Notes: generated by a model from the sequence alone, not told the origin. DNA of 43,041 nucleotides from a virus (IMGVR_UViG_2744054964_000002:1-43041); one strand, 5' to 3'. Positions 23,280 through 43,041 are shown, counted from the stretch's first letter. Numbers and translations: made by a program.

Positions 23280-23427
23280 TGTCCCATGTCCCACCTCTGG
23301 CGATCATTACGGACACCTCGCCAGCTCTGGCTATTCCAGTTTATTCCAGTGGGACATTCTGGTGGGACATGGCAAAAATGTCCCAGGCGAATGTCCCACC
23401 CCAGAAAATGTCCCAGGTGATGTCCCA
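23280..23427 (+). repeat. Array of eight TGTCCCA / TGGGACA heptamers (candidate cosB-type small-terminase binding sites)
   Basis: TGTCCCA at 23280, 23287, 23379, 23392, 23409, 23421; inverted TGGGACA at 23350, 23363; the last copy abuts the terminase small subunit start codon. Confidence 0.6.
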
Positions 23428-23996
23428 TGACCACGATGAACCAGAGTCAGTACGCACAACATTCAGGTGTGGATCGCAAAACAATTGGTCGGTGGATTAA
23501 AGCCGGGCGCTTCATTGTGATGGACGGAGACCTGATTGACGTAGAGGCCAGCGATGCGGCATTGAAGAAAAACCGCGATGGCAAAGACCCGCGCGCCTCG
23601 AACGCGAAGAAAAAGAAAACTCCCGTCGTTAGCGATAACGATGATGACGGTGATGAAATCAATAAAACTGTCCGCCAGATAATGCTCACTGAAGGGGCAG
23701 ATCTTTCGAGAGAGGAAGCGGGACGTATCCGCGAGAATTACATGGCCCTGCAGGCAAAGCTGCAGTATGAAAAAGACAGCGGCCAGCTTATTGAGCTGAC
23801 AGCAGCCGAGGAGGTTTTATTCAACGCCTTTCGCCAACAGCGTGATGCCTGGCTTAACTGGCCGTCCAGGGTGGCGCCGCTAATGGCTGCTGATCTGGAT
23901 GTACCGGCGGACAGGATGACAGAGGTGCTGATTGAACATGTCCACAAACACATCTCAGTCCTCGGAGAGCCAGAGTTTAACCCGGCAGAAGATTGA
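23427..23996 (+). CDS. Terminase small subunit (lambda Nu1-like)
   Basis: 189-aa ORF; N-terminal HTH-like YAQHSGVDRKTIGRWIKAG similar to Nu1 N-terminus; immediately upstream of the large terminase. Confidence 0.75.
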   Translation: MTTMNQSQYAQHSGVDRKTIGRWIKAGRFIVMDGDLIDVEASDAALKKNRDGKDPRASNAKKKKTPVVSDNDDDGDEINKTVRQIMLTEGADLSREEAGRIRENYMALQAKLQYEKDSGQLIELTAAEEVLFNAFRQQRDAWLNWPSRVAPLMAADLDVPADRMTEVLIEHVHKHISVLGEPEFNPAED

Positions 23997-26061
23997 GCGT
24001 CTTGAATTAAGCGTCCGCAAAGGCTGGACACCCCCGCCGCGTATCAGTGTGCCGCAGTGGGCAGATGACTATCGTAAGCTGGCAAAAGAGGCTGGGAGCA
24101 CTTCGGGAAACTGGGAAACATCGACGGTAGAAATTGCCCGCGGACCGATGCTTGCCGCGACGGAGTCCGGGGTTCATATCATCACTGTAATGTGCTGTAC
24201 CCAGTTGATGAAGACAGCACTGCTGGAAAACCTTTTTGGCTATTTTGCCCACCTCGATCCTTGTCCGATACTGCTGCTGCAGCCGAAAGAAGAAGCCGCT
24301 GAACAGTTTTCGAAAGAGCGTATTAGCCCGCTGGTAAGGGTGACGCCGGTACTGCGTAAAATCATCGGTGATTCGAAACAGAAAAGCTCGAAAGAAACCA
24401 TTCTTTACAAGGCGTTCACTGGCGGATTTCTGGCGCTGGCGGGTGCTGGTAGCCCTGATAACCTTGCGCGTCGTCCGATTCGTGTCCTGCTGGCGGATGA
24501 AGTGGACAAGTACCCGATAACCCGCGAAGGCGATCCAATTGCGCTGGCCGAAGAGCGTACAGCGACATTTGGCCTGACCTGGCTGTCTGTACGCGCCTGT
24601 TCGCCGACGGTGGAGGATGAGAGCCGCATTGCTGACAGCTACGCCGACTCCGATCAGCGCCGGGCATCTGTGGTTTGCCCGCACTGTGGCCACCGCCAGT
24701 TCCCCGACTTTTTCAAACACGTTCAGTGGCCGAAAGAGGGAGATAAACACCTGACTAAATCGGCGATGCTCTATTGCGAATGCTGTGGTAGTGGCTGGTC
24801 CGAAGGACAGCGCCTCAGAGCTCTGCAAACTATTCGATGGCATCAGACGCGCCCATTTGAGTGCTGCGGGGAGCGGCACTCACCGCTGATGGATTATGAC
24901 CTTGCCTGGCGGGCGGCAGACGAGGGCAGCGTTGAAAAGGTCTGGCAATGGTCAGAGTCGGAACGGCATGCGGTCTATCGCGCAATCTGCCCCTCCTGTG
25001 GAAAGGAGGCAGTCGATAACCACCACGCGGGGTACCAGGCATCCAAGCTTTTCAGCCCCTGGCAAAAAGATAAGCCGTCGGATATTGCGAAAAAATATAT
25101 CGATGCGAAGGGCGATCCGGATAAGGAACAGGCGTGGTGGAATACCCAGATGGGGCTTCCGCACCGACCTAATCATGGGAAACAGCTCCCTGTTGATGTT
25201 CTGCTGGCGCGCCGGGAAATATTTCCGGCCGTCGTTCCGGACGGGGTGGCATTGTTAACAGCTGGAGTTGATACCCAGGACGATCGCTTCGAAATTACGA
25301 TCACCGGCTGGGGGAGAGATGAAGAATCGTGGTCGGTCGCGCATGACGTTATTTATGGTGACCTTGAGACGGAAGAACCCTGGAAGCGACTGGATGCATA
25401 CCTGAAACAGATCTGGCGACGTGGTGACGGGCGCGGCCTGAATATCATGGCAACGTGCATGGACTCCGGTGGCCACCATACGCAGAAGGTATACGAATTC
25501 GCCAAAGAGCGTCTTGGCCGTCGTGTCTGGGCAATTAAGGGGGAGTCTGCACAGGGAGGTAAACGCAATCCTGTCTGGCCGACCAAACGACCATCATCGA
25601 AAAGCAAAGCCAGTTTCCGCCCTGTCATTCTGGGGGTTAACTCAGCGAAAGACGTGATACGCGGTCGCCTGCATCTTGAGCCACCCAAACCTGGCGCCGC
25701 CGCTGCGGGTTATATGCATTTTCCTGACGATCGCGATCTCGGGTACTTCAATCAGCTGCTGGCGGAGCGACTGGTTTACAAAGTCATTTCCGGGCAGCGG
25801 TACAGTATCTGGGAAGCAATACCAGGACGAGCTAACGAAGCGCTTGACTGCCTCGTTTACAGCTATGCCGCGCTGTGCGGTCTCAAACATATGGGGTTAA
25901 AACTCAACGTCCGGGCCGCCAACCTCGAAGCCGATCCGGATAAGTTCCTGCCAGCGCCAGTTGGACAGGAAGAAAAAATCAATTACGAGCTGCCGGGTGC
26001 GGTTATTGAAGAACCAGCGCCGGTCAAACGTAAGCGAATATCGCAACTCCTGCCGAAATAA
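23938..26061 (+). CDS. Terminase large subunit (lambda gpA family)
   Basis: About 707 aa from ATG 23938; blocks align by eye with lambda gpA (VCPHCGHRQF vs ACPHCGEEQY; LTAGVDTQDDRFEITITGWGRDEESW vs LTAGIDSQLDRYEMRVWGWGPGEESW; ANEALDCLVYSYAAL vs RNEALDCFVYALAAL). Confidence 0.9.
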   Translation: MSTNTSQSSESQSLTRQKIERLELSVRKGWTPPPRISVPQWADDYRKLAKEAGSTSGNWETSTVEIARGPMLAATESGVHIITVMCCTQLMKTALLENLFGYFAHLDPCPILLLQPKEEAAEQFSKERISPLVRVTPVLRKIIGDSKQKSSKETILYKAFTGGFLALAGAGSPDNLARRPIRVLLADEVDKYPITREGDPIALAEERTATFGLTWLSVRACSPTVEDESRIADSYADSDQRRASVVCPHCGHRQFPDFFKHVQWPKEGDKHLTKSAMLYCECCGSGWSEGQRLRALQTIRWHQTRPFECCGERHSPLMDYDLAWRAADEGSVEKVWQWSESERHAVYRAICPSCGKEAVDNHHAGYQASKLFSPWQKDKPSDIAKKYIDAKGDPDKEQAWWNTQMGLPHRPNHGKQLPVDVLLARREIFPAVVPDGVALLTAGVDTQDDRFEITITGWGRDEESWSVAHDVIYGDLETEEPWKRLDAYLKQIWRRGDGRGLNIMATCMDSGGHHTQKVYEFAKERLGRRVWAIKGESAQGGKRNPVWPTKRPSSKSKASFRPVILGVNSAKDVIRGRLHLEPPKPGAAAAGYMHFPDDRDLGYFNQLLAERLVYKVISGQRYSIWEAIPGRANEALDCLVYSYAALCGLKHMGLKLNVRAANLEADPDKFLPAPVGQEEKINYELPGAVIEEPAPVKRKRISQLLPK

Positions 26062-26069
26062 GGAAAATC

Positions 26070-41677: not shown

Positions 41678-42267
41678 GCCTCTTTTCAAAAAATGATTAT
41701 GCCGGTGCGCTTGGTGCGCTGCTACCGACGGGCAGGGCGTGGCCCCGGTCGCAAAGAACGGTACAGGCTGCGGTATTACGGGCACTGGGCAGCGCGTTTC
41801 AGCGTTCTGACAACGATGCGCAAAGCCTGATTACTGGTGCTTTTCCCCCTACAGCGACGGTAATGTTGTCAGAATGGGAAAGCTCTCTGGGGTTACCAGA
41901 TGATTGTGGGATTGGTGAATCCGGTGGCGTCAGCGATCGCCAGCACGCCGTGGTGGCAAAGTTAATCAGCACCGGCGGCCTGAACCGCGATTATTACATC
42001 CGGGTGGCTGCAGCTCTTGGTTATACCATCACTATCACACAGTTCCGGCCCGCTATGAGTGGCATGTCAGTATGCGGTGATGCGCTTAACGGTGACGAGT
42101 GGCCATTTACCTGGCGGATAAATGCGCCACAAACAACGATCAAGTATTCGCTTGCTGGCGCGTCCTACTGCGGAGATCCGCTCGCATCGTGGGGCAATAA
42201 ACAACTGGAGTGTTCAATCAACAAAATTGCCCCATCCCATCTGAACATCATTTTCAATTATTCATAA
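41674..42267 (+). CDS. Tail protein, YmfQ/DUF2313-like (Mu gp48-like)
   Basis: 197-aa ORF after the J-like gene, as in Mu-type baseplate clusters. Confidence 0.65.
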   Translation: MSLFSKNDYAGALGALLPTGRAWPRSQRTVQAAVLRALGSAFQRSDNDAQSLITGAFPPTATVMLSEWESSLGLPDDCGIGESGGVSDRQHAVVAKLISTGGLNRDYYIRVAAALGYTITITQFRPAMSGMSVCGDALNGDEWPFTWRINAPQTTIKYSLAGASYCGDPLASWGNKQLECSINKIAPSHLNIIFNYS

Positions 42268-42318
42268 CTGATATTTTCCCCTCTGATTTTATCGCTTAAC
42301 ACTAAGTGAGGATTAACT

Positions 42319-43041
42319 ATGCTCCGAATCGGGCAAGTCGAAGCCACTGCAACGCAGGATGGCAAATATACTGATGGAAGTGTTGCTGGTGGTATTGCCG
42401 CAACGAGGCTGCGGGCAGCAGCGTTTAATGCCATGCAGGAAGAGTTAGCGCATATCGTAGAGTCAGCAGGATTGGCGCTCGACATTAACGATATGACTCA
42501 GGTTTTAAAAGCCATTCAAAAACTCACACTGAGCCGTGCAAACCCATTTGCCGATATCAAATCAGATGGTGCAGCGGCGATTTCTACGGCTCTCACAAAC
42601 CTTGGTTTGGGAGAAGGCTCAGCGTTACCCGTTGGTGTATCTGTTCCGTGGCCTTCAGCCACTCCGCCAACAGGCTGGCTGAAATGCAATGGTGCGCCTT
42701 TTTCTGCCGAAGAGTATCCGGAACTGGCAAAAGTTTATCCGACAAATGAATTGCCAGATTTACGTGGTGAGTTTATTCGTGGCTGGGATGACGGGCGCGG
42801 TATTGACGCGAGGCGCGAAATTCTGTCTGCTCAGGGTGACGCCATTCGAAATATCGTTGGGCATATCTCATGCGTGCGTCGTGGGCCTGAAGGTTCAGAC
42901 CGTGCCGATGGCGCGTTTAGATACGATAGCAACTGGTCTACAAAAATTAGATCGACTGATTTAGCAGACGACTGGGGGAGCGTAGTCTCATTTGATGCCA
43001 GTCGCGTAGTTCCAACTGCACCAGAAAACCGTCCACGCAGT
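42319..43041 (+). CDS. Tail fibre protein with tail-collar domain (3' end beyond window)
   Basis: ORF from ATG 42319 (GAGGA RBS) stays open to the window end (241 codons, hand-translated); collar-type motif VPWPSATPPTGWLKCNGAPFSAEEYPELAKVYPTNELPDLRGEFIRGWDDGRG. Absent from the ORF track because no stop is present. Confidence 0.7.
   Translation, partial: MLRIGQVEATATQDGKYTDGSVAGGIAATRLRAAAFNAMQEELAHIVESAGLALDINDMTQVLKAIQKLTLSRANPFADIKSDGAAAISTALTNLGLGEGSALPVGVSVPWPSATPPTGWLKCNGAPFSAEEYPELAKVYPTNELPDLRGEFIRGWDDGRGIDARREILSAQGDAIRNIVGHISCVRRGPEGSDRADGAFRYDSNWSTKIRSTDLADDWGSVVSFDASRVVPTAPENRPRS

Follow-up and report, generated by a model that had tools for sequence, protein, structure and literature searches.

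The viral stretch IMGVR_UViG_2744054964_000002, 43,041 nucleotides in length and hereafter called the window, carries a prophage whose virion genes extend from position 23427 to the window end as a single uninterrupted run of plus-strand open reading frames (ORFs) with short gaps or overlaps. Judged by homology, 23427–43041 can be described as one collinear virion operon that combines a head and packaging module of the lambda type with a contractile tail of the Mu/SfV type. The region is very probably the intact late operon of a temperate myovirus that packages its DNA from cos sites, resides in Escherichia coli as a prophage, and belongs to the lineage of Serratia phage vB_SspM_BZS1 (MT843275; hereafter BZS1) and Citrobacter phage PhiNP (OR565852). 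Upstream of the virion block lie the lysis, integrase, and replication genes of one prophage, with a tyrosine integrase at the window start. Genes were compared directly by tblastn of 23 proteins against lambda, Mu, SfV, P2, BZS1, and PhiNP, and start codons were revised for the large terminase (23938), the scaffold (28835), the major capsid protein (29927), the ORF at the FI position (30978), FII (31363), N (37033), and gp47 (40535).

A preliminary description had proposed this mosaic on the grounds that the head genes follow the lambda order and align by eye with lambda proteins, and that the tail is of the myovirus type. The gene order is borne out by Pfam, which places the W, portal, S49, D, E, and FII families in lambda order, all above gathering scores. 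The alignments hold in tblastn for A, B, C, and E, whereas W, D, FII, and Nu1 are detected by hidden Markov models (HMMs) only. The contractile tail is likewise upheld through the sheath, tube, and gp43–gp48 families recognized by Pfam, and the siphovirus-type alternative failed on homology searches. A P2-type tail was considered and rejected, as P2 yields no tblastn match for any of the 23 proteins; its traces are a sub-threshold TIGR01644 match in the gp45 homologue and a short nucleotide match in the fiber collar region. The Mu head genes (gp28–gp34) have no tblastn matches in the window, which has a tyrosine integrase and probably cos-type packaging as opposed to Mu transposition.

At the junction of the two modules (approximately 31700–32460), the same description had left two ORFs unassigned and suggested that they might be adaptors. 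Neither is now without an assignment. The second, at 32268–32465, encodes a homologue of Mu gp38 with a DUF2635 domain and thus belongs to the Mu-type block, while structure prediction, suggested at the time for the junction proteins and now run for the first (31719–32264), returns a tail-terminator fold. The adaptor idea survives only in a restricted sense: on the modeled structure, the product of 31719–32264 would be the tail-side half of the head–tail joint, not a novel kind of adaptor.

This gene, which we call orf181, occupies 31719–32264 on the plus strand and encodes 181 amino acids; its start overlaps the stop of the upstream FII gene at 31719–31722. Searches of Pfam (E<=10), NCBIfam, and, with a family profile, PDB sequences returned nothing relevant. 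Its predicted structure adopts the alpha–beta fold of gpU and gp15, and the structures that it matches are overwhelmingly tail terminators: the siphophage R4C terminator (match score 12.3), T5 p142 (12.2), the P74-26 terminator (11.8), lambda gpU (11.7), Mu gp37 (9.7; chain 9khy_1, annotated "probable tail terminator"), the pyocin R2 collar (9.5), and T4 gp15 (7.4). The protein can be divided into a core with the terminator fold (residues 1–147) and a conserved C-terminal extension (residues 148–181). Given that both the terminator fold and the gene position are shared with Mu gp37 (182 amino acids) and SfV orf9 (186 amino acids), we assign orf181 as the tail terminator, with the high confidence that a modeled fold allows.

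The C-terminal extension has a low predicted local distance difference test score (pLDDT) and is predicted to be disordered in the monomer, yet it is conserved (L157, G159, P167, D168, G169, T170), which would suit a segment that acquires its fold on binding a partner. It bears a motif, PDG-x5-h-x-h-x-h, noticed by eye and post hoc, that also ends Mu gp37 and SfV orf9 and is absent from lambda gpU. Compared with siphophage terminators, those of myophages and contractile injection systems possess an extended C-terminus, whose beta-hairpin adds to the beta-sheet in the final ring of the sheath (PMC11915804). By analogy with the gp37 hairpin, the C-terminal 35 residues of orf181 may insert in the last sheath ring. 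The head side of the joint presents a different situation. The Mu connector is built from the portal, the gp36 adaptor, and the gp37 terminator, and has no stopper (PMC11915804), whereas here both an adaptor (gpW) and a stopper (FII) are encoded. With this pair present, orf181 would have to dock on the FII ring, a partner that differs from that of gp37, and it is the core that we infer to make this contact.

A profile search of 1.84 billion representative proteins assembled an orf181 family that numbers 369 clusters when grouped at 50% identity. Pfam recognizes none of 69 diverse members, and the family has neither a Pfam nor an NCBIfam model. Comparisons by hhalign of the family with Mu gp37, SfV orf9, and lambda gpU were never significant, whether a shallow or a 69-member alignment was used; the best result, with an E value of 0.01 and a probability of 4%, is confined to the N-terminal 42 residues of gpU. 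In PHROGs, orf181 falls in phrog_6774, Mu gp37 in phrog_490, and SfV orf9 in phrog_209, such that the four terminators, gpU included, reside in four PHROGs. Among the known terminators (lambda gpU, T5 p142, Mu gp37, T4 gp15, and the pyocin and diffocin collars) there is no detectable sequence relationship to orf181, which by these comparisons appears to represent a separate, uncurated family distinct from those of gp37, orf9, and gpU.

The distant reaches of this family proved informative as to its genomic company. Distant members were traced in IMG/VR from single distant proteins, leaving out locus L107, whose ORF does not match the family HMM. The long members, of 172–231 amino acids (Acetobacter phage phiAP1 and loci L091 and L092), follow an FII gene and are succeeded by DUF2635 and sheath genes where the sequence continues. 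The short members, of 145–151 amino acids (L089, L090, L094, L095, L097/L100, L103, L104, L105), are of a different kind. Those of L089 and L090, the two for which the range was reported, match the family HMM at positions 4–145 only and have no extension. The gene preceding the short member is of the FII type in every locus with upstream sequence, reaching the PF05354 gathering cut-off in L089, L090, L094, L100, L104, and L105 and matching a local FII profile only in L095 and L097. A siphovirus tube protein comes next in L089, L094, and L095, scoring above the Pfam cut-off; in L100 and L105 the tube matches are sub-threshold, L103 and L104 show no tube match downstream of the short member, and no sheath-sized ORF lies downstream in any short-member locus. 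The capsid genes, scanned in L089 and L090, are not of the gpE type, being HK97-type in the former and Mu gpT-like in the latter. The FII stopper is thus the constant neighbor of the terminator core, whatever the capsid or the tail.

This constancy, together with the occurrence of three unrelated terminator families (in Mu, in SfV, and in the present lineage) behind three head-completion systems, suggests that the stopper and the terminator are inherited as a unit. The 3′ end of the terminator gene, and not the border between FII and the terminator, is then the likely evolutionary joint between head and tail. A broader and more tentative proposal, to which we would give slightly less than an even chance, is that the FII stopper and the orf181-type terminator form a co-inherited docking pair that moves between phages: one and the same terminator core would serve non-contractile tails when short and Mu-type contractile tails when extended by a C-terminal sheath-binding hairpin, the recombination joint would fall inside the 3′ end of the terminator gene, and the choice of terminator, not the type of tail, would set head–tail compatibility.

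The most serious competitor to co-inheritance with FII holds that orf181 arrived with the Mu-type tail and has diverged beyond recognition from gp37 and orf9, its linkage to the siphovirus FII genes being coincidental or its likeness to the short proteins a convergence at the level of the fold. Several features are in keeping with such an origin, namely the near-equal length of the three proteins, the position of orf181 directly upstream of DUF2635, as for gp37 and orf9, the myophage-type extended C-terminus with its similar terminal motif, and the consideration that a terminator is functionally a tail-assembly protein. However, a search with the family HMM recovers the short proteins of the siphovirus type at E values of 5e-9 to 1e-8 and neither gp37 nor orf9, with gpU at E 540; the short relatives sit behind FII wherever upstream sequence exists; and three Mu-type tails stand behind three head-completion systems with three terminator families. 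We therefore regard a Mu-derived orf181 as unlikely, if by no means negligible, and favor its descent in the company of FII.

A number of points weigh against the assignments made so far. The terminator call derives from one AlphaFold2 (AF2) model of moderate confidence (pLDDT 74), the only good one of five, and the identity to its structural matches is 7–17%. The C-terminal motif shared with gp37 and orf9 comes without statistics, and the sole hhalign match to that region of gp37 has an E value of 0.06. No Z-type tail-completion protein was found in the block; in lambda, gpZ is placed between FII and U, and part of the neck may consequently be unaccounted for. The DUF2635 protein and the FI-position ORF are left without a role in the model. 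Finally, the prophage could carry an inactivating defect invisible at the sequence level.

Whether the block encodes one virion at all deserves a comment, as Mu-like tail clusters have reportedly been co-opted as tailocins in Pseudomonas, and the block could be read as a head-only remnant or capsid-forming satellite lying side by side with an R-type tailocin, a headless contractile bacteriocin. Against this, the junction shows no gap, promoter region, or strand change, the FII stop overlapping the orf181 start; intact terminase, portal, and head-completion genes are present together with the putative cos site; the upstream lysis, integrase, and replication genes are those of a single prophage; and related phages of this layout form plaques and possess both a head and a contractile tail. 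Two separate elements are accordingly very improbable, and a single virion operon remains the preferred description.

The age and spread of this arrangement can be gauged from its relatives. When the 19.6-kb block was compared by megablast with 50,697 phage records, no closely similar phage emerged; the matches were a 1.1-kb stretch of the BZS1 capsid gene and short fiber stretches, so that homology was established at the protein level. At this level the whole block is collinear with BZS1 and PhiNP at 33–93% amino-acid identity; PhiNP is matched by all 23 genes and BZS1 by all but the fiber. The identity of the capsid to the two phages is 88–92% (92% to BZS1), that of the portal 81–84%, of the tube 70–93%, and of the sheath 64–72%; at the junction itself, the values are 57–69% for FII, 61–73% for orf181, and 57–73% for DUF2635. 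Contractile tails have been visualized by transmission electron microscopy in both BZS1 (PMC7556043) and PhiNP (PMC6456863). By analogy, the check by electron microscopy that the preliminary description had suggested may be said to have been passed, in effect, by these collinear phages. Beyond these two phages, at least 80% of the block is found, at 98% identity or more, in 32 of 5426 complete E. coli genomes, the ten best listed being 99.3–99.9% identical, and 313 IMG/VR stretches encode relatives of the joint gene. The order portal, E, FII, orf181, DUF2635, sheath, tube, tape measure, N is kept in 61 of the 62 IMG/VR loci with full flanks, and both phiAP1 and the metagenomic locus L091 retain it at 24–60% identity.

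That the order persists at 24–60% identity, and that the proteins on either side of the joint resemble those of BZS1 and PhiNP to a similar degree, argues for an ancient and stable combination as opposed to a fresh recombinant. The alternative, a recent strain-specific recombinant between a lambdoid and a Mu/SfV-like phage with a fresh and possibly non-functional junction, can draw on the general commonness of mosaicism by recombination in phages, on the Mu-type tail that SfV carries behind a different, HK97-type head (PMC3851460), and on signs of recent exchange in the fiber region, which has 91% nucleotide identity to HK97 stf. It is nonetheless hardly credible, considering that the junction of FII, orf181, DUF2635, and sheath recurs in BZS1, PhiNP, phiAP1, L091, and nearly all of the full-flank loci, that the relatives form infectious myovirus particles, that the identity to lambda and Mu of only about 30–40% leaves no room for a recent lambda or Mu parent, and that near-identical parents (>90% nucleotide identity) breaking at 31722/31719 were not found in the 50,697 phage records. 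On these comparisons the mosaic is neither new nor recent, representing an old, widespread, and already deposited lineage.

That phages swap head and tail blocks as modules is textbook knowledge. A classical precedent for a Mu-type tail behind a foreign head is SfV, with its head of the HK97 type (PMC3851460). An explicit prior description of a "lambda-like head" plus a "Mu-like tail" was not found in the literature searched; the text of the BZS1 (PMC7556043) and PhiNP (PMC6456863) papers is silent on the mosaic, and the GenBank notes of BZS1 label Nu1, W, and Mup38–48.

Database records describe the orf181 family in other terms. Its homologues appear in NCBI, BZS1, and PhiNP records as "ATP-binding protein," "ATP-binding tail sheath protein," or "Mu tail sheath family protein," and PHROGs v4 mislabels both phrog_490 (Mu gp37) and phrog_209 (SfV orf9) as "portal protein." These names are the support for reading orf181 as an ATP-binding or sheath-related protein, which has almost nothing to recommend it in view of the absence of any Pfam, NCBIfam, or PDB sequence match to a nucleotide-binding or sheath family, the overwhelming preference of its fold for tail terminators, and the present naming of the identical E. 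coli protein as "hypothetical protein" by the Prokaryotic Genome Annotation Pipeline (PGAP).

The head block itself begins with the terminase genes. The Nu1-type small terminase (TerS; 23427–23996) belongs to phrog_57 (E 4.6e-36), which it has in common with lambda Nu1; it has no Pfam match and no BLAST match to Nu1, the homology holding at the family level only. The gpA-type large terminase (TerL; 23938–26061) matches PF05876 (GpA_ATPase, 2e-64) and PF20454 (GpA_nuclease, 2e-78) and is 29% identical to lambda A. Then come the gpW head–tail adaptor (26070–26333; PF02831, E 1e-14), a portal of the lambda gpB family (26333–27970; PF05136, E 7e-100; 30% identity to lambda B), and a gpC-type S49 prohead protease of 288 amino acids (27967–28833; PF01343, Peptidase_S49, E 2e-27; 36% identity to lambda C). 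A separate acidic protein at 28835–29425 (phrog_6382) is the likely analogue of the Nu3 scaffold. Its weaker matches, phrog_17040 and phrog_53, are common to Nu3 and this ORF, a remote resemblance, and its Pfam hits are only noise from acidic low-complexity sequence. The scaffold has its own gene here, whereas lambda Nu3 is nested in frame in the 3′ end of C. Further downstream are the gpD-type head decoration protein (29425–29829; PF02924, HDPD/gpD, E 3e-20) and the gpE-type major capsid protein (29927–30976; PF03864, Phage_cap_E, E 2e-60; 30% identity to lambda E), whose PDB sequence matches are YSD1/Chi and lambda-type capsid proteins.

Between the capsid and FII genes, at the position of lambda FI, lies an ORF (30978–31358) of phrog_24496 and not of the FI-family phrog_92. 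The N-terminal half of its product, about 65 residues rich in D, E, and T, is acidic and disordered, whereas the C-terminal part forms a small conserved domain (some 55 residues) with the pattern VVxKGNxxRHDG...DAxRLxxxGVxADV; the AF2 model exceeds a pLDDT of 90 at residues 70–120, and there is a weak DUF7210 match. As no fold match is significant (the best is Bacillus subtilis YqbF, E 0.33), we do not call it FI-like. The ORF is conserved across the lineage, including prophages of Serratia, Erwinia, Photorhabdus, and Hamiltonella. The head block concludes with the FII-type head closure or stopper protein (31363–31722; PF05354, Phage_attach, E 6e-13), a member of phrog_82 in common with lambda FII.

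Packaging of the lambda kind is also indicated by the region preceding TerS. The sequence GCATTGCGCGCC, at 23235–23246 on the plus strand, is identical to the experimentally determined 12-nucleotide 5′ cohesive end of BZS1, a phage with lambda-style 12-nucleotide 5′ cohesive ends (PMC7556043). It has one exact match in the window, some 180 nucleotides upstream of terS; its left flank is similar to the right end of BZS1, and the 17-mer around it is present in single copy upstream of terS in PhiNP and 51 related loci. From its identity to the mapped BZS1 overhang, 23235–23246 is a candidate site of cos cleavage. Between this cosN-like site and the terS start codon, at 23286–23427, lie seven copies of the octamer ATGTCCCA/TGGGACAT. 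All seven exact copies of ATGTCCCA in the 43-kb window fall within this interval, against 1.4 expected, and none of 100 shuffles reached seven. By analogy with the R sites of lambda cosB, the octamers are likely TerS binding sites. BZS1 has other repeats, GGTAACA, at the place of this array, which fits the identity of its TerS of only 34%. Relative to BZS1 and PhiNP, TerS (33–34% identity) and TerL (47–49%) are considerably more divergent than the adjoining W, portal, protease, and capsid proteins (73–92%) or the cosN 12-mer, which is identical. The pattern suggests, at the level of sequence, either that another boundary of exchange separates TerL from W or that the terminase has evolved rapidly.

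The tail block starts, behind orf181, with the DUF2635 protein (32268–32465; 65 amino acids; PF10948, E 2e-19), which shares phrog_208 with Mu gp38. It is 39% identical to the Mu protein and 50% identical to that of SfV, and directly precedes the sheath gene as in both phages. No relative was found in the PDB and no mention in the literature searched; gp38 is unresolved in the Mu virion structure (PMC11915804). The tail sheath, of the Mu gp39 (L) type (32462–33964; PF04984 and PF17482), is 41% identical to that of SfV and 37% to that of Mu, its best solved-structure match being Mu gp39 (9khy, E 2.6e-93). The tail tube (33968–34339; PF10618, E 2e-35) has 25% identity to SfV orf12. The tail assembly chaperone (34341–34768; PF10109, TAC_7) would be produced in two forms. 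The short product ends at 34619; a slippery heptamer, T_TTT_TTG, lies at 34598–34604, and the −1 frame stays open for 54 codons after it, up to the tape measure start, with the extended product ending at a TAA at 34766–34768. A programmed −1 frameshift is predicted from this canonical heptamer and the open −1 frame, in line with a conserved two-product arrangement; the frameshift product is unannotated by PGAP in the E. coli copies. The tape measure protein (34761–36689; phrog_2276, E 1e-155; no Pfam match) is encoded between the chaperone and the gp43 homologue. Its residues from about 391 to 541 (35930–36380) match PHROGs labelled as endolysin or tail-injection transglycosylase (phrog_873, 3e-41; phrog_7182, 3e-14), and its homologue in phiAP1 bears the label "phage tail lysozyme"; an enzymatic fold in the center of the protein is backed by no Pfam domain.

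The baseplate genes follow in the Mu order. The homologue of Mu gp43 (N; 37033–38436; PF07157, DNA_circ_N, E 3e-30), a DNA-circularization or tube-initiator protein, a role drawn from the Mu structure (PMC11915804), is 40% identical to its SfV and 32% to its Mu counterpart. It is succeeded by a baseplate hub of the Mu gp44 (P) type (38433–39518; PF21683, PF22255, PF21929), a spike of the gp45 type (39515–40099; PF06890; 30% identity to SfV), and three wedge proteins of the gp46 (40096–40533; PF07409, E 5e-30), gp47/J (40535–41677; PF04865, Baseplate_J, E 1e-56), and gp48 (41674–42267; PF10076, E 2e-32) types.

Two segments of the tail block deserve separate mention. Between the tape measure and N genes sits an AT-rich insert, or moron, of 340 bp (36690–37029; 41% GC, versus 53% for the module), with an 82-codon membrane-protein-like ORF at 36721–36969 that has two hydrophobic segments and a weak DUF4282 match and is interrupted at codon 12 by a stop; a terminator-like hairpin lies downstream, at 36993–37013. 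The insert is absent from BZS1 and PhiNP, where the gap between the two genes is only about 35 bp. The window shares its stop at codon 12 with most near-identical copies, but the codon specifies Tyr in three copies and Trp in one, which leaves either a decaying moron or a polymorphic nonsense site. The second segment is the tail fiber gene (42319–43041; PF07484, E 1e-13), which has a collar domain and is cut by the window end; it measures 756 nucleotides in the near-identical E. coli MLI104K1 copy, about 11 codons being lost here. Its collar region, at 42589–42854, shares 91% nucleotide identity over 266 nucleotides with stf of the siphovirus HK97 and 80–89% with P2-like fibers, and appears from this similarity to be a second, much more recent mosaic joint. 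Beyond the window end, the near-identical prophage NZ_CP116923 (L088, 25579–27577) continues from the fiber into a tail-fiber assembly gene, another such gene in inverted orientation together with a fiber fragment, and a recombinase, a layout that resembles the invertible host-range switch of the Mu G-segment/Gin type.

The lysis region upstream holds an unusual passenger, a 299-amino-acid ClpP-like SDH-type serine protease (18404–19303; PF01972), located just upstream of the holin (19398–19793; PF16931); a class-I-chitinase-type endolysin is encoded at 20061–20678.

Taken together, these components outline a plausible assembly pathway. A Nu1/gpA-type terminase would cut at the cos site, 23235–23246, beside the array of TerS sites, and the head, assembled from the gpB-type portal and a gpE capsid decorated by gpD with the aid of the S49 protease and the separate scaffold, would be filled in the lambda way and closed by gpW and the FII-type stopper. 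The tail would be built independently in the Mu way, from a baseplate of gp43–gp48 homologues, a tape measure with its frameshifted chaperone pair, and then the tube and sheath. The product of 31719–32264 would finally cap the tail, its core resting on the FII ring and its last 35 residues reaching into the final sheath ring.

The mosaic itself matters little, as the combination is already present in two published phages characterized by electron microscopy and in hundreds of deposited prophages. The modest gain is the identification, by its fold, of a very probable tail terminator in a large uncurated family, which renders the "ATP-binding" records correctable, and the hint that this family travels with the FII stopper. 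The lineage constitutes a natural experiment on head–tail compatibility and points to the stopper–terminator pair as the determinant, a matter of relevance to the engineering of chimeric phages and tailocins. If the choice of terminator indeed sets compatibility, it would amount to a design rule for chimeric phages. Since PhiNP and BZS1 can be cultivated, these ideas are directly testable.

The prophage can finally be set beside the well-studied systems. Its head module has the same families in the same order as that of lambda (TerS, TerL, W, portal, S49 protease, scaffold, D, E, and FII), and packaging is probably of the cos type, as in lambda, with 29–36% identity for A, B, C, and E where BLAST detects anything. 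In contrast, lambda gpFI is of a different family from the FI-position ORF, and the gpZ, gpU, and gpV genes of lambda are absent, the tail being contractile instead. That tail is shared with Mu and SfV, in which the DUF2635/gp38, sheath, tube, gp43/N, gp44/P, and gp45–gp48 proteins are homologous and identically ordered (25–50% identity where BLAST matches), and the chaperone and tape measure are equivalent by position; it is slightly closer to SfV than to Mu. The head behind it is of the lambda type, as opposed to the Mu type in Mu and the HK97 type in SfV, and the transposition genes of Mu are lacking. The closest parallels are PhiNP and BZS1. Nearly all virion proteins are 47–93% identical to those of the former and 34–92% identical to those of the latter, the genes from TerS through gp48 come in an unchanged order (continuing into the fiber in PhiNP), and both phages have the same cosN 12-mer, are temperate, and bear an integrase. 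They differ from the E. coli prophage in their hosts, in their early and lysis regions, in lacking the moron, and in the fiber, which is only 33% identical to that of PhiNP.

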